From the IMG/VR virus record IMGVR_UViG_3300044825_001821, positions 96,001-160,000 of that record: a DNA stretch of 64,000 nt; one strand, written 5' to 3'. This DNA is from a virus. Position numbers and translations under genes: made by a program. This document shows positions 42,494 to 62,524 of the stretch, in pieces. Below the pieces are notes generated by a model. That model was not told the origin of the DNA. It did not search any database and worked only from the letters and a program-made list of their open reading frames with translations. Within the stretch, counting starts at the first letter, position 1; each line of letters begins with the position of its first letter.

Positions 42494-42924
42494 TGAAAGT
42501 AGGATTCAACTGTAGCACATTTGATTTGTTTCATGCCGGGCATGTAGCTATGCTCAAAGAAGCAAAACGTCACTGTGATTACCTGATAATAGCAATACAA
42601 ACTGACCCTACTATTGATAGGCCAGAAAAAAATAAACCTATACAATCAATCTATGAAAGATTTGTGCAAGTCTCTGGTTGCAAATATGTCGATGAAATAC
42701 TTGTATATTCTACCGAAGAAGATTTATTAAATCTGTTAAAAACACAACACATTGACATAAGATTTCTTGGCGAAGATTATATAGGTAAAGACTTTACTGG
42801 CAGACAGTGGTGTATTGACAACGGAATCGAAATACACTATCATAGTAGAAAACATTCTTACAGTAGCACCGAACTCAGATTGAGGGTGCAACGAGCCGAA
42901 GAACAAAAATTAAATTGGTCATAG
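42493..42924 (+). CDS. Cytidylyltransferase (TagD/glycerol-3-phosphate CT-like)
   Basis: FDLFHAGH (HxGH) and RKHSYSSTELR. Confidence 0.88.
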   Translation: MKVGFNCSTFDLFHAGHVAMLKEAKRHCDYLIIAIQTDPTIDRPEKNKPIQSIYERFVQVSGCKYVDEILVYSTEEDLLNLLKTQHIDIRFLGEDYIGKDFTGRQWCIDNGIEIHYHSRKHSYSSTELRLRVQRAEEQKLNWS

Positions 42925-44004: not shown

Positions 44005-45710
44005 TATTATTTAAACGTCTGCGTTGGAAGAATCTACTTTCAACGGGCAACCATTTTACTGAAATATTACTGAATGGTAACCCTAACACACTCATCGTTG
44101 GAACAAATGGCTCAGGTAAGTCAACGATGCTTGACGCTTTGTGCTTTGGTTTGTTTGGTAAGCCTTTTCGTTCAATTAACAAACCAAACCTTGTAAATTC
44201 AATTAACAGTAGAGACACTGTAGTAGAGATTGAATTTTCTATTGGTAATAAAGAATATAAGATCGTTCGTGGTATCAAACCGAATGTGTTTGAGATATAT
44301 CAAGACAAGGTTTTGCTGAATCAAGATGCGGCTGTAAGAGATTATCAAGACTACTTAGAGAAGTTTATTCTCAAACTAAACTATAAGTCTTTCACACAGA
44401 TCGTGATTCTTGGTTCAGCATCCTTTACGCCGTTTATGCAATTGTCGGCTGCTGACCGTCGTGCAATCATCGAAGATTTGTTAGACATTCAAATCTTTTC
44501 TGTCATGAATGGATTGGTTAGAGAAAGACTATCTACCAACAAAGAGTTGACAGCAGCAAAGAAAAGTGAGATAGCATTGCTTGAACAAAAGCATGAACTC
44601 AAAAAAGAATACCAAGACAAACTCAATGAAGATATTGAAGTAAAGGTAAAAGAACATGAGAAAGAGATACTTTTGCACAGAGAAACCATTCGCACCTTAC
44701 ATGATGAGATTAACAACTTGGAGCGAACGAAGAAATCGCTTGACGAAACCTGCATCAAAATTCCTGAAAATGAAAAGAAGATTGCTGCGCTTAAAAAAAT
44801 TGAGTCACAAATTGAGAGCAAGATATCCAAAGTGGGAGATGATAGAAGTTTCTATGAACACAATGCTGATTGCCCAACCTGTAGGCAAGCAATTACCTTG
44901 GAGTTTAAAGAGGGGCAACTTACAGAACTTGGCACAAAAGAACACGAACTTGCTAGTGCTTTAATAGAACTGCAAACAAAAATCACAACGCAAGAAAATG
45001 TTGTTGCTGAACTGCGTGGCAAAGAAAAAGATTTATCAAACGTTCGCATTCAATTAGCAACTACACAAACCAGTGTGAAAGGTTTGAATGAAACAATCAT
45101 CAAATTAGAAAAACAAATTAAAGAACTAAGAACACCCAAAGAAAACAGCACAGACACAAACGAATTAGAAACAATTAAAACACAGATAAAACAAGCACAA
45201 GAAGAATTGAAACAGTTATTGGATGATAAAGCGTACCTTGATGTAGCATCAACATTATTGAAAGATACAGGCATCAAAACTAATATCATTAAACAATATT
45301 TGCCTGTGATAAACAAACTGGTGAACAAGTATCTTACCAGCATGGATTTCTTTGTGAACTTCAATCTTGATGAAGCATTCAAAGAAACAATCAAGTCACG
45401 CCATCGTGATGACTTTAGTTATCACAACTTCTCAGAAGGTGAGAAACAGCGTATTGATATGGCATTGATGTTGACATGGAGAGCAGTTGCTAAATTGAAG
45501 AACTCTACCAACACTAATCTGCTTATACTGGATGAGATATTTGATTCAAGCCTAGATACAAGTGGTACTGAAGATTTAATGAAGATACTTCATGAATTGA
45601 ATGGTGTTAATTTATTTGTTATAAGTCACAAGGGTGATGTTTTACAAGATAAATTTATGAATACTATTCGTTTTGAAAAAGTGAAAAACTTTTCAAGGAT
45701 AGTAAAATGA
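44001..45710 (+). CDS. gp46: Recombination endonuclease ATPase gp46 (Rad50/SbcC-like)
   Basis: GTNGSGKS, CPTC hook, FSEGEK, LILDEIFD. Confidence 0.96.
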   Translation: MILFKRLRWKNLLSTGNHFTEILLNGNPNTLIVGTNGSGKSTMLDALCFGLFGKPFRSINKPNLVNSINSRDTVVEIEFSIGNKEYKIVRGIKPNVFEIYQDKVLLNQDAAVRDYQDYLEKFILKLNYKSFTQIVILGSASFTPFMQLSAADRRAIIEDLLDIQIFSVMNGLVRERLSTNKELTAAKKSEIALLEQKHELKKEYQDKLNEDIEVKVKEHEKEILLHRETIRTLHDEINNLERTKKSLDETCIKIPENEKKIAALKKIESQIESKISKVGDDRSFYEHNADCPTCRQAITLEFKEGQLTELGTKEHELASALIELQTKITTQENVVAELRGKEKDLSNVRIQLATTQTSVKGLNETIIKLEKQIKELRTPKENSTDTNELETIKTQIKQAQEELKQLLDDKAYLDVASTLLKDTGIKTNIIKQYLPVINKLVNKYLTSMDFFVNFNLDEAFKETIKSRHRDDFSYHNFSEGEKQRIDMALMLTWRAVAKLKNSTNTNLLILDEIFDSSLDTSGTEDLMKILHELNGVNLFVISHKGDVLQDKFMNTIRFEKVKNFSRIVK

Positions 45711-46291
45711 TTTTTAATTATTTGTTCTCCAGTTTTTACATACAAGAAAAAGTAAATTTAAATAGTGAGTTAATTTCAGAATATTGTTTGAGTCTAAGAC
45801 AAAAAGACTCAGGTAGATTTATAACAAACTATGGTGGTTGGCAAAGCAATAAAATTACTCACCTGTCATCTGAGTTACAACCTCTATTGAGAGAAGTGCA
45901 AAACAGATTTACACCAATGAAAAAGTTGTTAGGTCTTAAAGAAAACGTTTCTCTTTCAATTGGAAGTCATTGGATAAACATAAATGGTAAAAACAATTTT
46001 AATATACCACATATACATCCATTTTCTTTAATGTCTGCTGTTTACTATGCGAAGGTGCCTAAAAATTCTGGTAAACTAATCTTTGAAAACCCTATTCAAC
46101 ATCATGATTATGTTATAGTACCAGATACAGTTGAAAACTATAACTCATTTAATTCTGGTGTTTGGAACGTTGTACCAGAAGAAAATGATTTATTATTCTT
46201 TCCTTCTTGGCTGAAACATTGGGTCGAGCCAAGTGAAACTGAAGAGGAAAGAATCTCGATAGCATTTAACATACAATATGATAACCAATAA
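45707..46291 (+). CDS. Putative 2OG-Fe(II) oxygenase (TIGR02466-like)
   Basis: WININ...HIHP...SAVYY...FPSWLKHWV...RISIAFN. Confidence 0.85.
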   Translation: MIFNYLFSSFYIQEKVNLNSELISEYCLSLRQKDSGRFITNYGGWQSNKITHLSSELQPLLREVQNRFTPMKKLLGLKENVSLSIGSHWININGKNNFNIPHIHPFSLMSAVYYAKVPKNSGKLIFENPIQHHDYVIVPDTVENYNSFNSGVWNVVPEENDLLFFPSWLKHWVEPSETEEERISIAFNIQYDNQ

Positions 46292-46841
46292 AGTATACGT
46301 CTTTGATTATATCATTGATGAAAATAAACGAAAAGATATGTATGACACTTTGGTGAAACAACACCAAACAAACGTTTATTTAAAAGAATCAAATAACATG
46401 GGTGTGAACCACCCCTTCATGACAGAACTCAACGAAGTATTCGTACAAAAATGTAGAGAGATATATGGACCGTTCGAGGAACAATCTTTAAAACAAAAAG
46501 ATCATCCTTGGATTCATGATTCTAGATATGAGGCATGGGTTTATTTAAACAATAAAGATTGGTATAAAGGAGAAAATATACACAATCATATGCCTACATC
46601 TACATATGTTGGTGTATATTATTTGAATGTACCCAAGCACTCAAATTTGATGAATGGTTGTTTGAAGTTCTACGATTACAAATGGCATCTGATTGATTAC
46701 TTTTATCCGAAGCAGGGACAATTCATTATCTTTGAATCTGATCTGTTTCATTCAATTACAAAAAACAATTGCGAAGAATACAGAATTTCAATTAATCTTG
46801 AAATACTTGTAAAGAAAAAATTAAAATTTGTGGAGCAATAA
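46278..46841 (+). CDS. Putative 2OG-Fe(II) oxygenase, paralogous to the upstream gene
   Basis: HNH...GVYYL...FESDLFHS...RISINL. Confidence 0.75.
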   Translation: MITNKVYVFDYIIDENKRKDMYDTLVKQHQTNVYLKESNNMGVNHPFMTELNEVFVQKCREIYGPFEEQSLKQKDHPWIHDSRYEAWVYLNNKDWYKGENIHNHMPTSTYVGVYYLNVPKHSNLMNGCLKFYDYKWHLIDYFYPKQGQFIIFESDLFHSITKNNCEEYRISINLEILVKKKLKFVEQ

Positions 46842-46842
46842 A

Positions 46843-47439
46843 ATGAGTGAATACATTACAATTGATACTGAAAAAGATATAACATGGAAAAATGAAAACA
46901 TAACTCCTTTACCTGTTCATGGTGAAGATTATTTCATGTTAGATGTTCGTATCCCCGAATACAAGGGGGAGTTTCCGAATGCGGCAATGGTACATTTAGC
47001 CAAACGATTGCGTATGACTATGAAACTATATTCTGGTTTAGGTTTGTCGGCTAATCAATGTGGCGTTGCTGAACGTATGTTTGTAATAGGTTCTGGTGAA
47101 TTTCAACTGACATGTTTAAATCCAAAATTGAAAGCACAATCTGCAAAAAGATCGAAAGAAAAAGAGGGATGTTTATCACACCCAGGTTTATTTTTAATTG
47201 TTGATAGGCCAGAAGTTATTGAAGTTGAGTTCTTAACAGAGGATGGTGAGAAAAAAGAAATGACTTTAGAAGGAATCACTGCAAGATGTTTTCTTCATGA
47301 GTTAGATCATTTAGATGGGGTTAGATATACCAAACTTGTAAAACCCCTTGCACTTAGAATGGCAAGACAAAGAGCAAACAAACTTGTTAAAAAGATTGTA
47401 AGGAAAAATAAAAATGAAAGACTGGCAACACGGGTATGA
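46843..47439 (+). CDS. def: Peptide deformylase
   Basis: GLGLSANQ, EGCLS, HELDH: all three PDF motifs. Confidence 0.93.
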   Translation: MSEYITIDTEKDITWKNENITPLPVHGEDYFMLDVRIPEYKGEFPNAAMVHLAKRLRMTMKLYSGLGLSANQCGVAERMFVIGSGEFQLTCLNPKLKAQSAKRSKEKEGCLSHPGLFLIVDRPEVIEVEFLTEDGEKKEMTLEGITARCFLHELDHLDGVRYTKLVKPLALRMARQRANKLVKKIVRKNKNERLATRV

Positions 47440-48508
47440 TTTAGACTATCTAAAAAGTCTAGCCGAAAAATACAAGCACTACAATTCTTATACATACTCA
47501 CCTTTTGCACAAGTAAAAAAGAATAACATTGCAGAAGGTTTGCATAAGGGCACACTGATTCACTTGTATGAAGATACACTTCTTGATGTGGTACATGTCA
47601 AATCGAAGGGTAGCATTACCATGCATGGTGACACAGTAATTGGTACAAAACAAAAAGGTGATGTTGTATTCTCAAAGATGACAGGCGATCCTAAAATTTT
47701 GAACATGGAAATTTCAAAATACAATCAGGATGCATGGATGTATGTGTGGGCAGAAGATAAAGTGATGAATGATTTTGCTGAGTCTATTGGGTTTTGTAAA
47801 GTTGCACCAAAGATTACCTCATTTGGTGAGATGTATATGGTATACTATCGTGGTAAGAAAAGAGATTTTCCAAAAGTTGACCCGGCAGAATATCAAAGTA
47901 TTTGCAAAATTCAAGATATTGATGTATCATTAATTGATAGTATTGCAGATAAGTTGAATGAACTACCTCAGTTTACAAATCATTACAGCAATTACAATAA
48001 AGGCAAATCATGGTCCGCACTATCCCTTCGTGGTTACACTGCCGATCCTGCCTTTATTACAAAACCAATTGAGATGAATGATAAATGGAAAGAAGAAAAT
48101 AAAGAGGTGCATTTTGAAATGCAAGACACACCTTTGTTTGAAATGTTTCCTGAAGTTCGTGAATTGATTAAACCGTTTGGTCAGAATATACACCGAGTGA
48201 GATTTATGAAATTGAAACCTGGCGGTGGTGAATTAGAAAGACACACCGATCAAGTTGACCCCGACTCTGGAGGTTCACTTGGTAAACTTGCAAGGTTACA
48301 TTTTCCAATCAAGACAAATGATAAAGTTAAGTTTACTGTCTGGCATACAAATGGTGTGCCTAGAGAAGTAACAATGAAAAAAGGTGAGTGTTGGTTTCTA
48401 GATACACGTAAGCCACATAGAGCAATCAATGGTGGTGATGAGGAACGAATTCATTTAGTAGTCGATATAATGACAGAGAAAGATTTACATGCTAGAATTG
48501 TTGAATGA
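47414..48508 (+). CDS. Fusion: GNAT-like N-terminal domain + aspartyl/asparaginyl beta-hydroxylase-type 2OG-Fe(II) oxygenase
   Basis: C-term RFMKLKPGG..ERHTD...RLHFPI.TN...KPHRAING...RIHLVVD. N-term YVWAEDK..NDFAESIGF resembles GNAT motif B (weaker). Confidence 0.75.
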   Translation: MKDWQHGYDLDYLKSLAEKYKHYNSYTYSPFAQVKKNNIAEGLHKGTLIHLYEDTLLDVVHVKSKGSITMHGDTVIGTKQKGDVVFSKMTGDPKILNMEISKYNQDAWMYVWAEDKVMNDFAESIGFCKVAPKITSFGEMYMVYYRGKKRDFPKVDPAEYQSICKIQDIDVSLIDSIADKLNELPQFTNHYSNYNKGKSWSALSLRGYTADPAFITKPIEMNDKWKEENKEVHFEMQDTPLFEMFPEVRELIKPFGQNIHRVRFMKLKPGGGELERHTDQVDPDSGGSLGKLARLHFPIKTNDKVKFTVWHTNGVPREVTMKKGECWFLDTRKPHRAINGGDEERIHLVVDIMTEKDLHARIVE

Positions 48509-49226
48509 TTGGAGTGATCCTAATCCAAAACCTATTATTGAGATGCACAATAATTTTTATGTTGTGCGTGATGACCTATTAGAATATGGAAGCAAAAGTA
48601 GATTCATTGATTACCTGATTAAAAGTGAGGGTAATGAGTGGGTGTTTGGTGGCGCAAACAAAGTAGGTTGGGGACCTATATCACTAACGCATGTTTGTAA
48701 TTTATACAATAAAAAAGCAACATTCTTTATGGCCAAAAGAAAAGAACCTACTTGGCACCAACAAAAAGTGTTAGACATGGGTGGCACAATTCATTGGGTC
48801 GATAATGGAATGTTGAATGTGACAAAAGCAAAAGCACGTAAGTATTATGAAGAAGATACAGTCAATCGTAGAGTGTTGCCTTTAGGTCTAGAACACCCTT
48901 CAGTGTTAGCATCGATAGTTAAAGTTGCAAAGAGTTTGGAAGTAACACCAACAGAAATATGGACAGTAGCATCAAGTGGAACATTAAGTAGAGGATTACA
49001 GTTAGCGTTTCCAGAACTGCCAGTGTATGCAGTTGAGATTGGACACAAAATGAGTGAGTATGAAAGAGGTCGTGCAATAACTATGCGCTCACCTTATAAG
49101 TACGATCAACCTATCAAAGAAGAAGAAGCACCACCATATCCATCAGAAAAATATTATGATGCAAAGATATGGCCATTTGTTATTGAACACGCCAAACCCG
49201 GCGCACTGATTTGGAATGTTGCATGA
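48489..49226 (+). CDS. PLP-dependent enzyme, fold type II (ACC deaminase/D-cysteine desulfhydrase-like), compact
   Basis: VRDDLL..GSKSR (PLP lysine), VASSGTLSRG phosphate loop, YDAK, LIWNV. Confidence 0.8.
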   Translation: MLELLNDWSDPNPKPIIEMHNNFYVVRDDLLEYGSKSRFIDYLIKSEGNEWVFGGANKVGWGPISLTHVCNLYNKKATFFMAKRKEPTWHQQKVLDMGGTIHWVDNGMLNVTKAKARKYYEEDTVNRRVLPLGLEHPSVLASIVKVAKSLEVTPTEIWTVASSGTLSRGLQLAFPELPVYAVEIGHKMSEYERGRAITMRSPYKYDQPIKEEEAPPYPSEKYYDAKIWPFVIEHAKPGALIWNVA

Positions 49227-50797
49227 AATATTTTTATGAAAAGAATACAGAGTTACTTGAATCAAATGTAAACAAAACATTTGATGAAGTTCTTATTATG
49301 ACGAAGGATGAATTTCGTCAATGGGCTATTGACTTACGCAAAAAAGTTGTTTATCTGTGGGATGAAAAAGGTCAACCACCACGTGTGGGATATGATGAAC
49401 AAGAAATCATCGATCAGTTCAATGAGATGACTTCATTTCCTGTTCATAAATTTTTGGTTGAAGATGAATACACAAATGAAAAAAATGTAATTCGTAATAC
49501 AAGTGTGATTGGGAATGCAGTTAATCAATGGTTTCCTACCATGATGAAAACACGAATCAATTACACCAAAGATGTTGACAAAGGCAAATCAATATACGAT
49601 TACTTTGCACGTGATGACTTACTTGATACGTTTGTAACGTATGCTTCAAGGCATTTCAAACGAGATTCTTTTTATCATTACTCTTCACCAATTCAAGTTG
49701 ATAAACTAATTCAGATTGGTTCATTGCAGGTTGTACCACAAACAACAAAAGAGTTTGTTGAGTGGTTCGAAACTAAAGCAAGAGGCTATGGCACACATGA
49801 CTATTGGTTAGAACCTGCTGATGAAGATAAAGAATACACAGGATACAATGAAGAGTTGAAGAATCAAAAGTATTTGTTTGTTTCACGTGATGAAATTATT
49901 GATTTGAACATACCTGTTCATTGTATAACAAATATTGATGCCAAGGAAGGTGTCAACACATATAGAATTAGACTATATGAAAAAGAACAAAAACTTTTTC
50001 CTGTAGGTCTTAAAGCTTTCCGTGTGTCGTTCTGTCAGTATGCGGTTAATTTTCCTCCATTGACAGCCAAATACTTGTATGAACGATACACGGAGCCTTT
50101 TAAAAATCAAGAGCAAATAATCATATACGATCCATCTTCTGGTTGGGGTGGTCGTTTACTTGGCGCATTGTCGGTTGACGATAATCGAAACATACATTAC
50201 GTGGGAACTGATCCTAACACAGATCATAACACCCACAGCGGTAGAACAAAGTACCATGAGTTCGCTGACTTTTTTAATACGAACACGTACAGAGCGACTG
50301 GTTTGTTTCCTAAAACACACACATATGAAATCTTTCAACACGGTTCTGAAGAAATACACAATGATCCTGCGTTTCAAAAGTATAAAGGTAAGTTAGATTT
50401 GATCTTTACTTCACCACCATACTTTGCTAAAGAAGCCTACTCTGAAGATGACGCACAATCGTATAAAAAATTTAGTCAATATGATTTGTGGCGTGATGGA
50501 TTTCTTCGTAAGACATTAGAAACTTGTGCCGAGTATCTAAAGAGTGATCGATATCTGTTATGGAATATTGCTGATGCAGTGTTTGATAGTGAAATGCTTC
50601 CACTAGAACAAGATTCAATTGATATACTTACCGAGTATGGATTGATCTATAAAGGCAAACTGAAAATGTCACTGGCACAAATGCCAGGAGGCAATCGTGT
50701 TGACTCAGAGACAGGACTACCTAAAGCAAAAAACTTTTGCAAAGTTAATAACATGTGGCTCAAATACGAACCTATTTTTGTCTTTTATAAACCTTGA
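49223..50797 (+). CDS. SAM-dependent amino-type (N4C/N6A) DNA methyltransferase-like protein with long N-terminal region
   Basis: Motif I YDPSSGWGGRLLG, YVGTDPN, motif IV DLIFTSPPYF..E.YS. Confidence 0.82.
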   Translation: MKYFYEKNTELLESNVNKTFDEVLIMTKDEFRQWAIDLRKKVVYLWDEKGQPPRVGYDEQEIIDQFNEMTSFPVHKFLVEDEYTNEKNVIRNTSVIGNAVNQWFPTMMKTRINYTKDVDKGKSIYDYFARDDLLDTFVTYASRHFKRDSFYHYSSPIQVDKLIQIGSLQVVPQTTKEFVEWFETKARGYGTHDYWLEPADEDKEYTGYNEELKNQKYLFVSRDEIIDLNIPVHCITNIDAKEGVNTYRIRLYEKEQKLFPVGLKAFRVSFCQYAVNFPPLTAKYLYERYTEPFKNQEQIIIYDPSSGWGGRLLGALSVDDNRNIHYVGTDPNTDHNTHSGRTKYHEFADFFNTNTYRATGLFPKTHTYEIFQHGSEEIHNDPAFQKYKGKLDLIFTSPPYFAKEAYSEDDAQSYKKFSQYDLWRDGFLRKTLETCAEYLKSDRYLLWNIADAVFDSEMLPLEQDSIDILTEYGLIYKGKLKMSLAQMPGGNRVDSETGLPKAKNFCKVNNMWLKYEPIFVFYKP

Positions 50798-50822
50798 CAA
50801 GTAAAACCACCTCTGCTACACT
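50794..50822 (+). promoter_or_regulatory. Sigma70-type (early) promoter
   Basis: TTGACA-N17-TACACT with extended TG. Confidence 0.75.
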
Positions 50823-50853: not shown

Positions 50854-51012
50854 ATGTCAGAATTGCAAGATTTTGTTGACGAAAATGAAATAGGTTATCA
50901 ATTTGCTTTACTTGATGTCAAAAATGCAATAGATACATATGGTATCGAAATAGTATTTCAAGCCTTGGACTTGACAAGTATTTCCATACCTGATAAAATG
51001 GTTATTCAATGA
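50854..51012 (+). CDS. Small hypothetical protein (52 aa, MSELQDFVDENEIG...), not in ORF track
   Basis: Strong RBS gaggagg; directly downstream of a consensus promoter. Confidence 0.55.
   Translation: MSELQDFVDENEIGYQFALLDVKNAIDTYGIEIVFQALDLTSISIPDKMVIQ
50971..50999 (+). promoter_or_regulatory. Sigma70-type (early) promoter
   Basis: TTGACA-N17-TAAAAT with extended TG, upstream of 51028. Confidence 0.75.
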
Positions 51013-54572: not shown

Positions 54573-54647
54573 TTGTAGTGTAGTAAAACAATCTGCCAAT
54601 TGTGGCAACCAACCAAACGCCGTCGGCGTATCTTAGGAGTAATATGT

Positions 54648-56090
54648 ATGAGTAAAGTTGTACTTTTTAATCACAAAACGTTCAATCTTGAACAGTGGTC
54701 AATTGAAGAGATTATTCGGTGTATCAATTCACCCACAGAAAAAATTCAAGTAATGCCGCCAGAATTTCAGCGTGACTTTATAGCATCGCTGAAATGGCAG
54801 CGTGATCTTATAGATTCATTCTACAATGGTCTATCATCTAATTTAATTCACTTTCGTAAACTTGATAAAGAAAAAGCGTCTAAGATTGGTTTTGCCTATC
54901 AATGTCTTGATGGTTTACAGAGACTTTCTACTACGATCAATTTTGTCAATAATAAATTTGATGATAATAACGGAAAATTTTTTCGTGAACTCTCAAAAAA
55001 AGAGCAAGAAAATGTTCTTTCATACACCTTCACATTGTATGTCTATGCTGAAACTATGACAGATGAAGAGGCGGGTGAAACTTTTTGTCGTATTAATAAT
55101 GCAAATGATCTGAATGATCAAGAAATGCTTAATGCTATTCCTGGTTATGTATCACAAACAGTTCGTAGCCAGGCACGTTCCGGTCAAACTACATCTGTAC
55201 TGCCTGTGTTTGAAACGTATATTGATGTTAAAGGTACACGCCGTCCTAAAAATGGACTTGGAATGTTGCCTGGTGTACGTTTGGCATATGATGCTTTGCT
55301 TGCAAGATGGTATACAGTTGAATACGATAAACAGAAAAATCCAAACAACTTAGCCTTTCATGGTTCAGGTATCAACAAACCACATACAACAAAAATGTAT
55401 CGTGATGCTAATTTGAAATCTCAGTATGTTGATGGTAAACCTGTATACCTTGCTGATTATACATGGGCACAACCAAAAGAGTTTGCTTCAATTGAGAAAG
55501 AAGTGATTCGTCGTGCTAAGTTTGTTCACGATTGTCTTAGTGCTGATATTGAAAACAACAAAAAGTTTTTTAAGACTGATGGTAAGATACATGCACTATA
55601 TGATCTTTCTTATGAACTCGAAAATGTTTACGGTAAAAACTGTGTGAAAGATTTTAAAAAATTTGTTCGTGGTGTCAAAGAAGTGCTTGCCACACACCTT
55701 GATGAAAAGAAAAATAAAGACGGTGCTCTTTACTTTCAAAGATTGTTAGGTTGTGGCACTGGTCATGAGATTCTAGAAAAGATTGCATATTTTATGGATG
55801 CTATCTATGCCGATCCAGACTATTTTGGTATAGTTGAAATGGATTATGGTAAGATCAGTGATGCCGATAAGATGCAAATTTTGATTAAGCAGAAGCATAC
55901 CTGCTGGATTGATGAACAAGAAGCCAGTATTGATGATGTTGAAGCAGCACATATCATTGCACGTTCTCTTGGTGGCAAGAATGTAGTAAGTAACTATGTT
56001 TTGGTACGTAAACAATACAACCGCAATATGGGTACAATGACTCCACAAGATTACAAACAGAAATACTTTCCACAATTGTGTGGCAAATAA
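54648..56090 (+). CDS. DUF262 (ParB-like) + C-terminal HNH protein, GmrSD-like nuclease
   Basis: PEFQR...LIDS...LDGLQRLSTT...F.RIN (DUF262 motifs); AAHIIARSLGG..V.SNY.L....YN (HNH). Start at the ATG after aggag. Confidence 0.82.
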   Translation: MSKVVLFNHKTFNLEQWSIEEIIRCINSPTEKIQVMPPEFQRDFIASLKWQRDLIDSFYNGLSSNLIHFRKLDKEKASKIGFAYQCLDGLQRLSTTINFVNNKFDDNNGKFFRELSKKEQENVLSYTFTLYVYAETMTDEEAGETFCRINNANDLNDQEMLNAIPGYVSQTVRSQARSGQTTSVLPVFETYIDVKGTRRPKNGLGMLPGVRLAYDALLARWYTVEYDKQKNPNNLAFHGSGINKPHTTKMYRDANLKSQYVDGKPVYLADYTWAQPKEFASIEKEVIRRAKFVHDCLSADIENNKKFFKTDGKIHALYDLSYELENVYGKNCVKDFKKFVRGVKEVLATHLDEKKNKDGALYFQRLLGCGTGHEILEKIAYFMDAIYADPDYFGIVEMDYGKISDADKMQILIKQKHTCWIDEQEASIDDVEAAHIIARSLGGKNVVSNYVLVRKQYNRNMGTMTPQDYKQKYFPQLCGK

Positions 56091-62026: not shown

Positions 62027-62524
62027 ATGAAACAAAAATACGTAAAAGCCCATATGAAAGCAGCAAGTGTATATGCTGAACTTTCTACCGCAAAGAGATT
62101 ACAAGTGGGATGTGTAATCGTCAAAGACAATACCATCATCGGCATTGGTTATAATGGTATGCCATCTGGTTGGAATAACATGTGTGAAGAAGTAGAGTAT
62201 GTTCTGAAAGAAGAATGTTATAAAACTGATGAGTGGATGAAAATTAATGGTTTCACAGAAACAGCACATGGATGGACAAGATTGCGTTCCAAACCAGAAG
62301 TGCTACATGCCGAATCCAATGCTATTGCCAAAGTTTCTCGGTCAACAAATTCAAGTGATGGGGCATCGATGTTTATTACCCACGCACCATGCTTAGAATG
62401 TGCTAAAATGATATATCAGTCAGGAATCAAGGAGGTTTATTATAGGCATGATTATAGAAGCAATGCAGGAATCAACTTTTTGAAACAATGTGAAGTTAAT
62501 GTACAACAGGTGAAGGAGATATAA
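62027..62524 (+). CDS. cd: dCMP deaminase
   Basis: VGCVIV...GYNG.PSG, HAESNAI, PCLECAK. Start reassigned to ATG 62027. Confidence 0.92.
   Translation: MKQKYVKAHMKAASVYAELSTAKRLQVGCVIVKDNTIIGIGYNGMPSGWNNMCEEVEYVLKEECYKTDEWMKINGFTETAHGWTRLRSKPEVLHAESNAIAKVSRSTNSSDGASMFITHAPCLECAKMIYQSGIKEVYYRHDYRSNAGINFLKQCEVNVQQVKEI

Follow-up and report, generated by a model that had tools for sequence, protein, structure and literature searches.

A candidate DNA base hypermodification module with a methyltransferase-fold core in a freshwater T4-like phage

Three overlapping genes in the complete 172,439-bp genome of a freshwater T4-like phage may, at about even chances, form one post-replicative DNA base hypermodification module, which would be built around a methyltransferase-fold core and not around a kinase and an amino-acid:DNA transferase (AADT). 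That the product is more than a methyl group, i.e., an amine-bearing DNA adduct, is likewise a balanced call, and the specific route via a SAM-derived 3-amino-3-carboxypropyl (acp) or aminopropyl group is doubtful rather than probable. The connection to DNA hypermodification is supported, at the level of sequence, by homology of gene 2 to the proven enzyme gp52 of Pseudomonas phage M6 and by a gene 1-type homologue next to an AADT-like gene of mycobacteriophage LilMcDreamy, and is thus stronger than the earlier note on this DNA, made from the letters alone, could know.

Organization of the locus

All coordinates are positions in the 64,000-nt stretch of DNA analyzed here (the window), in which the three genes lie on the + strand (Table 1). 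The ORF listing confirmed the three overlapping genes described in the earlier note, with gene 3 given as 49211..50797 from a TTG start (P0003). We place its start at the ATG at 49223, as the earlier note had done, because homologues align from there and this ATG overlaps the gene 2 stop as ATGA. Genes 1 and 2 overlap by 20 nt, an upstream peptide-deformylase gene overlaps gene 1 by 26 nt, and the gene 1 ATG is preceded by AAGGA at 9 nt. Since each of the three proteins has hundreds to thousands of conserved homologues (e.g., 969 for gene 1 and 3101 for gene 3, none of them named), they are genuine genes, not ORFs that arose by chance. Behind the best upstream promoter match follows a tightly packed run of gp47, gp46, two 2OG oxygenase genes, the deformylase gene and genes 1 to 3; the next strong + strand matches, again to the consensus, occur only past gene 3 (50794-50822 and 50971-50999). 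Genes of metabolic type also lie between gp46 and cobT: 2OG oxygenases and the deformylase here, and in relatives a dCMP deaminase and a PfkB kinase.

Table 1. Positions of the three genes and their features in the 64,000-nt window
Feature	Position	Strand	Description or basis
Promoter, sigma-70-like, best upstream match	42815..42843	+	TTGACA-17-TATCAT, 11/12; consensus match only
Gene 1 (P0001, P1)	47414..48508	+	364 aa, ATG start; GNAT-fold N-domain fused to AspH-type 2OG/Fe(II) oxygenase
GNAT-fold domain, gene 1 residues about 9-150	47438..47863	+	structural alignment of model
Double-stranded beta-helix oxygenase domain, gene 1 residues about 155-360	47876..48493	+	structural matches
Oxygenase iron ligands	H277 48242-48244; D279 48248-48250; H347 48452-48454	+	plus R345
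Gene 2 (P0002, P2)	48489..49226	+	245 aa, ATG start; compact fold-II PLP protein, M6 gp52 family
Predicted Schiff-base Lys36, gene 2	48594-48596	+	sequence conservation
Gene 3 (P3)	49223..50797	+	524 aa from ATG; amino-methyltransferase-fold enzyme with N-terminal extension
Gene 3 N-terminal region (about 262 residues)	49223..50008	+	roughly 260 residues precede motif I
Class-I SAM-binding amino-MTase domain of gene 3	50009..50794	+	conserved motifs, structural matches
Motif I DPSSGWGGR, gene 3	50129-50155	+
Motif IV SPPY, gene 3	50411-50422	+

Fold assignments and active sites

The folds proposed in the earlier note, i.e., GNAT and AspH for gene 1, fold-II PLP for gene 2 and amino-methyltransferase for gene 3, hold. 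The predicted structure of gene 1 (pLDDT 93.3) aligns in its N-terminal half (VIA-align, model residues 9-151) with the PDB entries 2pc1 (Z 12.2, rmsd 3.2, 132 aligned), 2fia (Z 11.2) and 8zt3 (Z 10.6). At the place of the acetyl-CoA loop Q/RxxGxG/A this domain has a single Gly only (G91), and such a GNAT fold without a clear acetyl-CoA loop counts against the preferred explanation. The C-terminal half matches Pfam Asp_Arg_Hydrox (PF05118, 1.1e-13) and is structurally similar to 4p7x (Z 15.7, rmsd 3.1, 178 aligned; Foldseek 7.8e-11), 7v4p (Z 15.0) and AspH 8re5 (Z 14.9). As H277, D279, R345 and H347 are invariant across 23 sequences, fusions among them, the predicted HxD...H...R 2OG/Fe(II) site is intact.

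Gene 2 itself had no Pfam match, while relatives match Pfam PALP. It matches phrog_7093 at 1.5e-28, the same PHROG that M6 gp52 matches at 2.2e-159, and alignment of the gene 2 family with gp52 by hhalign covered the full length (98.85%, E 4e-17). Both have the family-specific C-terminal motifs PFPS..YDAK.W and FWNV, the phosphate loop, the Lys36 position and a similarly compact size (gp52 has 278 aa). M6 gp52 (Lys36) and gp226 of Salmonella phage ViI use PLP to decarboxylate amino-acid:nucleobase conjugates in DNA and are experimentally proven to act on DNA-linked Calpha-GlyT and O-SerT (Lee et al., NAR 2021/22, PMC8989533). G34, K36, R38 and G164 are invariant in 37 sequences of the gene 2 family, whose profile matches serine dehydratase, cysteine synthase and ACC deaminase in the PDB at 1e-5 to 1e-4. 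Fold-II PLP enzymes change their reaction type easily, and this, together with an identity to gp52 of only about 22%, counts against the preferred explanation.

Gene 3 (pLDDT 85.4) resembles N4-cytosine/N6-adenine DNA methyltransferases (SPPY/DPPY) in its intact motifs I and IV (FTSPPY), in the gamma-like order I then IV, with a Pfam score for N6_N4_Mtase (PF01555) barely past the cut-off (27.9 vs 26.7 bits). It differs from them by an invariant GWGGR loop, an additional domain (about 260 residues) and its tight coupling or fusion to PLP and oxygenase domains. Family invariants are FPP, DPxxGWGGRxLG, YxGxDP, TSPPY, E404, Y406, QS, W423 and NIA, and the SAM-binding and (S)PPY motifs are intact; FTSPPY fits the N4-cytosine signature, and adenine N6 would be possible. 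The closest structures are Trm11 5e72 (Z 15.7; best Foldseek match, 4.3e-7), TrmN 3tma (Z 15.7), METTL5 (Z 14.4) and PrmC (Z 13.7), and with tRNA and rRNA amino-methyltransferases as best matches of a predicted model, the fold alone leaves a DNA target unproven. The N-terminal region lies outside the coverage of the structural matches and gave neither a Pfam nor an informative atlas match, and it is partly alignable to bacterial fusion proteins.

Co-occurrence, gene fusions and absence of the thymidine route

In each of the 42 related phage contigs gene 2 directly neighbours gene 1, and gene 3 follows 0-2.5 kb downstream wherever the contig sequence suffices, with the single exception of relative L038, which has no gene 3 within 6 kb. 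Among relatives whose gp46 identity is 50-75%, gene 2 is 66-94% identical. The trio recurs independently and in the same order in the unrelated high-GC phage contig L071, where the methyltransferase subtype differs. Moreover, the trio is fused in proteins of bacterial mobile elements (methyltransferase, oxygenase and PLP), and the natural fusions include methyltransferase, AspH and PALP in single proteins (P0006, 1081 aa; P0024, 1138 aa), AspH with PLP immediately behind a methyltransferase gene (P0013), and methyltransferase with PLP (P0005, P0007, P0022). In gp1 of Erythrobacter phage R6L, which begins with a ParB domain, the PLP domain is inserted between methyltransferase motifs I-II and III-IV, and L071 carries this type of methyltransferase uninterrupted. 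Synteny, the independent trio and the double and triple fusions support the coupling of the three genes into one functional unit, as proposed in the earlier note.

For distant viral PLP genes of the gp52 type (80 loci), an amino-methyltransferase is fused in 6, abutting in 55 and within 3 kb in 12 (73/80 altogether), and at least three methyltransferase subtypes are paired with the PLP gene. A gene 1-type oxygenase/GNAT gene was present at just one of these loci; because it is missing from the other 79, gene 1 is an accessory outside the core. ParB-like matches occur at 30 of the 80 loci, and the gene 1 homologue of LilMcDreamy has as neighbours the AADT-like gene, a gene resembling DpdA and a ParB gene; ParB partners have been described to regulate phage DNA base modification (PMC13229309).

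The earlier note saw no amino-acid:DNA transferase in the window, and this extends to the complete genome, where the AADT search was blank and the same search was positive in the control phages M6 and LilMcDreamy. Neither a ThyA-type hydroxymethylase nor speD was detected in the complete genome, nor was TET/JBP in a search run without a control. With neither an amino-acid:DNA transferase nor a hydroxymethylase in the complete genome, the known thymidine route is absent, and a DNA-linked amino acid would have no other origin, which speaks for the preferred reading. In the thymidine pathways of M6, ViI, PaMx11, SP10 and PhiW-14, 5-hmdU, 5-HMUDK and AADT are followed by a PLP decarboxylase, FAD lyase or acetyltransferase. 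The proposed module would likewise put an amine-bearing group on a base in polymeric DNA and sculpt it by a PLP decarboxylase and an acetyltransferase-type domain; in contrast, its SAM-dependent (S)PPY enzyme suggests that the target is an exocyclic amine on C or A and not thymine C5, and an AspH-type oxygenase occurs in no described pathway. While gp52 is partnered by a 5-hmdU DNA kinase, an AADT and a radical SAM isomerase, the partner of gene 2 is an amino-methyltransferase, and thymine-linked glycine or serine cannot be its substrate because the genome lacks the enzymes making them.

Proposed chemistry and alternative explanations

In the tentative acp route, gene 3 would flip out the base (cytosine N4 by the FTSPPY fit, or possibly adenine N6) and transfer acp, which bears a free alpha-amino acid, from SAM to the exocyclic amine, releasing methylthioadenosine. 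Lys36 of gene 2 could then bind the amine as a Schiff base and remove CO2, so that a cationic 3-aminopropyl side chain is left; if the order is reversed, gene 2 would decarboxylate SAM before gene 3 transfers aminopropyl. Finally, gene 1 would tailor the chain, with the oxygenase hydroxylating a methylene and the GNAT-fold domain perhaps acylating the terminal amine. A comparable set of enzyme types is reportedly used in microcin C maturation, where MccD (methyltransferase fold) transfers acp from SAM and MccE combines an N-terminal PLP decarboxylase with a C-terminal GNAT domain. As an analogy only, the proposed chemistry would be shared, since there too a nucleotide-linked acceptor receives acp, which is then decarboxylated to aminopropyl; the acceptor, however, is a peptidyl-nucleotide phosphoramidate and not DNA, and the MccE decarboxylase is reportedly of fold III, not fold II. 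A further precedent is Synechococcus phage S-B43, in which CmoA, CmoX and CmoY yield 5-carboxymethylcytosine and its glycine amide, i.e., a methyltransferase-fold enzyme equips phage DNA with a non-methyl group from a SAM-type cofactor, which serves as the handle for later tailoring (PMC12783734). However, CmoX is a C5-cytosine methyltransferase homologue using carboxy-SAM from CmoA, whereas gene 3 is of the amino-methyltransferase type and has a PLP enzyme as partner, and nothing CmoA-like was noted in the trio or the genes immediately around it.

An alternative, which we consider rather improbable, is that gene 3 encodes a DNA methyltransferase of the ordinary N4-cytosine or N6-adenine kind leaving a methyl mark only, with the products of genes 2 and 1 as helpers or acting on small molecules (SAM, by-products or another metabolite). 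The PF01555 match and the classical FTSPPY signature are in line with this, as are the metabolic-type genes of the gp46-cobT region. Homologues of gene 3 in Staphylococcus phage Alsa_1, Vibrio phage 2.058.O and Bacteroides phage DAC16, cultured phages that yielded no gp52-like gene, carry DNA methylase annotations and keep the gene 3 invariants (GWGxR, SPPYFxxExY, QS, W, NI); such a shared catalytic core argues against the acp route and would fit plain methylation equally. Similarly, pairing of the PLP gene with several methyltransferase subtypes is easier to explain by a generic role (methylation, base flipping) than by repeated evolution of acp transfer. Plain methylation, however, leaves unexplained the gp52-type domain inserted within a methyltransferase domain, the proximity of 73/80 distant gp52-like genes to a methyltransferase and the fusion of all three into single proteins, and a methylated base would give PLP chemistry no primary amine.

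That RNA (tRNA, rRNA or a 5' end) or protein is the target appears quite unlikely. In that case gene 3 would act like the amino-methyltransferases for m2G or m6A in RNA or for glutamine, and an amino-acid group linked to RNA, e.g., acp, would be tailored by genes 1 and 2. Acp groups are known from RNA (acp3U, TYW2, Tsr3) and are not known from DNA, and the fusion P0081 weakly matches the Pfam RNA cap guanine-N2 methyltransferase. The best structural matches (Trm11, TrmN, Trm14, METTL5, TrmM, PrmC; Z 13.7-15.7) also point this way, but barely exceed generic class-I methyltransferases (Z 13-14). Neither THUMP nor any other RNA-binding domain was found, ParB N-domains are present in related MTase-PLP genes (30/80 loci), family-level matches are DNA methyltransferases (N6_N4_Mtase, Eco57I, Alw26I-type), and the sole characterized relatives of gene 2 act on DNA. 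Hardly likely, finally, is a PLP protein acting as transferase, which, in the manner of fold-II enzymes of the cysteine-synthase type, would form aminoacrylate from serine or activated serine and add it to an exocyclic, possibly pre-methylated, amine while the methyltransferase domain holds the base flipped out, yielding an aminocarboxyethyl base for tailoring by gene 1. Beta-replacement is typical of fold-II PLP enzymes, the family profile matches cysteine synthases and serine dehydratases, and a PLP domain nested in a methyltransferase would put both sites at one base; yet the nearest characterized relatives are decarboxylases, the intact SAM motifs would be left without a clear role, and such a reaction has no precedent on DNA.

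The interpretation of the earlier note is thus supported in part, namely for the functional unit, the folds and the link to DNA modification. We found no publication on this three-gene module. Returning to the preferred reading of one hypermodification module, the fusion of the same three activities into single proteins elsewhere suggests that the trio probably builds an undescribed, larger-than-methyl base decoration.

The gp52-type PLP protein and its partner enzymes

The decisive link is a family assignment made by sequence: gp52, the PLP decarboxylase of Pseudomonas phage M6, defines phrog_7093 (2.2e-159), the PHROG that the gene 2 product (P0002) matches over residues 19-245 (1.5e-28). 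In an hhalign comparison the gene 2 family and gp52 align end to end (98.85%, E 4e-17), motifs missing from ordinary PALP enzymes included, and K36 of gene 2 aligns with the Schiff-base Lys36 of gp52 (PMC8989533). K36 (in GSKSR) and G164 (in SSGT, the PLP phosphate loop) are invariant in 37 of 37 family members, as are G34 and R38, and VVRDD is nearly invariant. P0002 alone found no match in Pfam, and phmmer searches of the PDB with the single sequences of the gene 2 and gene 3 products gave nothing useful; the assignment is based on the PHROG, the family members and the profile comparison, in which the family profile reached serine dehydratase, cysteine synthase and ACC deaminase in the PDB. 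These fold-II-type matches, together with PHROG 7093 membership and the invariant K36, bear out the compact fold-II PLP enzyme of the earlier note. Gene 2 can accordingly be placed in the gp52/gp226-type PLP family, which in an exhaustive search comprised 1047 cluster representatives (576 below 1e-10), and decarboxylation of a DNA-linked substrate is predicted for it. Both gp52 and gp226 of phage ViI were shown to be PLP-dependent, with Calpha-glycinyl- and O-serinyl-thymidine in DNA as the substrates that they decarboxylate (Lee et al., PMC8989533).

Gene 3 is, by its invariant motifs, a class-I amino-methyltransferase (MTase) of motif order I then IV, which may transfer methyl to an exocyclic amine of DNA. 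Its match to PF01555 (N6/N4 amino-DNA-methyltransferases) reaches 27.9 bits at a cut-off of 26.7, and 32.9 bits in the own-genome search; invariant are FPP, the SAM motif I DPxxGWGGRxLG, YxGxDP and TSPPY, followed by E..Y, QS, W and NIA, so that the SAM-dependent amino-methyltransferase-like protein described before was recovered. Its 3101 homologues include none with a name. The model (pLDDT 85.4) matches Trm11, TrmN, Trm14, METTL5 and PrmC at Z 13.7-15.7, hardly above generic MTases, and structural matches at this level (Z 13-15.7) cannot tell amino-MTases of DNA from those of RNA. Trm5a, the fold relative of TYW2, also appears, with a Z of only 13.0 and within the generic MTase range. SAM-dependent transferases of the 3-amino-3-carboxypropyl (acp) group include TYW2, MccD and Tsr3; gene 3 gave no family match to known acp transferase families. 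No fold could be assigned to the first ~260 residues, and an ESM atlas search with the N-terminal 265 residues returned nothing above chance. A complex prediction of the gene 2 product with the gene 3 MTase domain scored 0.00, which gives no verdict and is evidence in neither direction.

The C-terminal part of gene 1 is an AspH-type 2OG/Fe(II) oxygenase with a DSBH fold: residues 184-353 match Pfam Asp_Arg_Hydrox (PF05118; 1.1e-13, 51.8 bits against a cut-off of 22.6), and the iron triad HxD...H (H277, D279, H347) and the 2OG-binding R345 are invariant, fused forms included. In the model (pLDDT 93.3, alignment of 23 sequences) this domain resembles L-proline cis-4-hydroxylase (4p7x; Z 15.7, rmsd 3.1, 178 aligned), the nucleoside-antibiotic hydroxylase 7v4p (Z 15.0) and human AspH (Z 14.9). 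By model comparison, residues 9-151 form a GNAT fold (2pc1, Z 12.2, rmsd 3.2, 132 aligned; 2fia, Z 11.2; 8zt3, Z 10.6; 9mto, Z 10.3); the Pfam scan of gene 1 gave no GNAT match. A single conserved glycine (G91) follows strand 84-90, and between strand 4 and helix 3 neither the second G/A nor the Q/R of the acyl-CoA pyrophosphate loop Q/RxxGxG/A is present. Of the proposed fusion of a GNAT-like domain with an AspH hydroxylase, both folds and an intact oxygenase site thus stand; since the acyl-CoA loop is not recognisable, acyl transfer by the GNAT-fold domain is treated as a possibility.

Gene arrangement and genome setting

The trio is carried by a T4-like phage, whose source record (172,439 bp with direct terminal repeats) is rated complete; a cyanophage origin was rejected because the genome lacks a psbA match. 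Relatives derive mainly from freshwater metagenomes. The gene boundaries proposed in the earlier note, including the start of gene 3, were confirmed in the ORF listing, and each gene occurs once in the genome. The run of genes that starts at gp47 is gap-free throughout, with gp47/gp46 (SbcD/SbcC-like), two PF13759 2OG oxygenases and a peptide deformylase upstream of the trio and CobT- and CobS-like genes downstream. The two PF13759 2OG-Fe(II) oxygenase genes (phrog_81; window 45707-46841) are tandem and overlapping, and they and the deformylase gene behind them lie directly 5' of the trio. Among 50,697 phage records, blastn found nothing that matched the trio, and none of the three genes has a family in NCBIfam.

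Coordinates (window positions) of the trio and of nearby features
Feature	Position	Strand	Basis and remarks
Gene 1 ORF	47414-48508	+	ORF listing; overlaps upstream deformylase gene
Gene 2 ORF	48489-49226	+	ORF listing
Gene 3 ORF	49223-50797	+	ORF listing; start ATG overlaps gene 2 stop as ATGA
Best promoter-like match	42815-42843	+	Consensus match; next strong matches only beyond gene 3
496-aa ORF	54600-56090		

Conservation of the trio and of its MTase-PLP core

Genes 1 and 2 adjoin in all 42 related contigs, and gene 3 follows 0-2.5 kb 3' of gene 2 wherever the contig extends. The sole exception is L038 (IMGVR_UViG_3300020469_003527), a 56-kb contig with genes 1 and 2 and no gene 3-like gene within the 6 kb searched downstream. 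The high-GC phage contig L071 has an independent trio in the same order, comprising a gene 1-like protein (35% identity, full length), a gene 2-like protein and an MTase of the subtype found in Erythrobacter phage R6L. The neighbourhood analysis that the earlier note had called for hence came out in favour of co-occurrence, and within the neighbourhood gene 2 shows the highest conservation.

Fusions join the same parts in one polypeptide: MTase, AspH and PALP domains are combined in P0006 and P0024, MTase and PLP in P0005, P0007 and P0022, and AspH and PLP in P0013, whose gene immediately follows one for an MTase and has mercury-resistance genes next to it. P0006 (1081 aa; L046:5859-11570) is encoded in a bacterial island that also carries resolvase and recombinase genes; its flanking genes encode proteins of 224, 397 and 140 aa without a Pfam family, and PemK genes are nearby.

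Where genes are inserted between genes 2 and 3, they encode a dCMP deaminase, 2OG oxygenases, a DUF4326/SLOG protein or a PfkB kinase. In a more distant relative, the inserted gene (L042:6735-7379) is a DUF4326 + YAcAr (SLOG) fusion (3.9e-27 and 1.6e-13); ligands of SLOG domains are nucleotide-derived. A dCMP deaminase gene lies directly 5' of gene 3 in many T4-like relatives (L014:6927-7454, L029:8069-8530, L011:8156-8632) and directly 3' of the gene 3-like MTase in Vibrio phage 2.058.O (L133:5694-6239); in the present phage it is found 11 kb from the trio, at about 62045-62443 of the window. This recurrent adjacency may reflect a cytosine-related role or merely a clustering of nucleotide metabolism.

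A narrow PLP alignment of distant family members, used as a locus probe, found 376 viral contigs, from which 80 loci were fetched. Here, the gp52-like PLP gene was fused to an amino-MTase in 6 loci, abutted one in 55 and had one within 3 kb in 12; an amino-MTase was lacking in the remaining 7, 4 of them at contig ends. A gene 1-like gene occurred in only one of the 80, and the core of the module is therefore MTase plus PLP, with gene 1 as an accessory. Several MTase subtypes partner the PLP gene, and ParB-like matches were present in 30 of the 80 loci. In R6L gp1, a ParB domain is followed by MTase motifs I-II, the gp52-like PLP domain and MTase motifs III-IV (SCPPY), and in Microcystis phage Mae-JY30 consecutive genes encode ParB, MTase and PLP proteins; control of phage base modification by ParB partners has been described (PMC13229309). 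Six large viral contigs (L103, L105, L106, L112, L121 and L124) carry a two-MTase version of the module, in which a 408-aa SPPY MTase lies 1.8 kb, and a full-length gene 3-like gene (E about 1e-138) 6.3 kb, 3' of the gp52-like PLP gene; gene 1-like genes are absent within 8 kb. Altogether, the module ranges over T4-like phages, ParB-tagged phage enzymes and bacterial mobile elements.

Candidate chemistry and its alternatives

To our knowledge, all worked-out amino-acid-built DNA hypermodifications of phages start at 5-hydroxymethyl-pyrimidines and use a kinase and an amino acid:DNA transferase (AADT). The module shares with them the gp52-type PLP decarboxylase as tailoring enzyme, but here it is paired with a SAM-dependent amino-methyltransferase fold, sometimes in one polypeptide. 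The absence of an AADT from the window, noted earlier, extends to the complete genome, where PF18724 and PF18746 were blank; PF18724 detected the positive controls M6 gp51 (2.3e-48) and gp3 of Mycobacterium phage LilMcDreamy (6.3e-14). Likewise, the complete genome gave no match to ThyA-type dUMP hydroxymethylase (PF00303; control matched in 10 genomes) or to TET/JBP (PF12851; control likewise matched nowhere). Whereas the known thymidine pathway (5-hmdU/5-HMUDK/AADT) uses an AADT and a source of 5-hmdU, neither AADT nor ThyA-type hydroxymethylase was detected here, and this pathway was rejected for that reason. Gene 1 has its own tie to DNA hypermodification, through the neighbourhood of LilMcDreamy gp4 (hhalign 99.9%, E 1.4e-33). 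In that phage, genes 1-4 (L003:1-3759) encode a ParB-like protein, a DpdA-like protein ('queuine tRNA-ribosyltransferase'), an AADT-like protein (PF18724, 2.7e-12) and the AspH-type homologue of our gene 1 in a row, followed by the terminase; the row resembles a hypermodification cluster, so far uncharacterised, of a mycobacteriophage in culture.

A gp52-type enzyme requires a primary amine beside a carboxylate, and its sole constant partner is a SAM enzyme, which makes the acp group of SAM the obvious amino-acid donor. Gene 3 would then transfer acp to the exocyclic amine of cytosine or adenine in DNA, with N4 of cytosine favoured by FTSPPY under the classical motif rule; gene 2 would decarboxylate this group while the base is part of the DNA polymer, leaving a cationic aminopropyl base, and gene 1 could hydroxylate, perhaps also acylate, the chain. 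In microcin C biosynthesis, MccD and MccE carry out such an acp transfer followed by decarboxylation on a nucleotide acceptor. CmoX exemplifies a DNA MTase fold able to install a non-methyl handle on phage DNA (PMC12783734). For an adduct that is more than methyl we see evenly balanced prospects; the acp scheme with all its steps is put forward tentatively, as a rather unlikely one.

This restraint has two reasons, both in keeping with a generic function of the MTase: homologues in Staphylococcus, Vibrio and Bacteroides phages without a detected gp52-like gene have the same catalytic core as gene 3, residue for residue, and more than one MTase subtype pairs with the PLP gene. Plain methylation with genes 1 and 2 as helper enzymes is an explanation that we consider doubtful. 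That the module acts on a target other than DNA seems improbable, and a PLP-driven beta-replacement very improbable. Methylation, oxidation and PLP-dependent condensation with glycine was rejected as a general mechanism because 79 of the 80 MTase-PLP loci lack the oxygenase, and decarboxylated SAM supplied by a phage speD was dismissed because no speD was found in the genome.

No relevant paper emerged when the literature was searched for DNA bases carrying acp or aminopropyl and for phage modules that pair PLP and MTase enzymes, and for the MTase plus gp52-like module there was neither a paper in the searchable literature nor a curated family name. We regard the module as a variant within phage DNA hypermodification that wires a PLP decarboxylase to an amino-MTase fold. 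The pairing is abundant, as reflected by the 376 viral contigs found with one probe and by hundreds to thousands of unnamed homologues of the T4-like genes. Should the acp route hold, its chemistry would be new for DNA, giving the first DNA base derived from the SAM backbone and a second, widespread route to amino-acid-type hypermodification. Solving the module would either reveal a new base together with a new role for SAM in DNA modification, or explain the dependence of a methylase on a PLP partner; it would also yield enzymes with which DNA could be tagged with amines site-specifically. The reading of methylation calls in long-read metagenomes of these phages could be affected by such a base as well.
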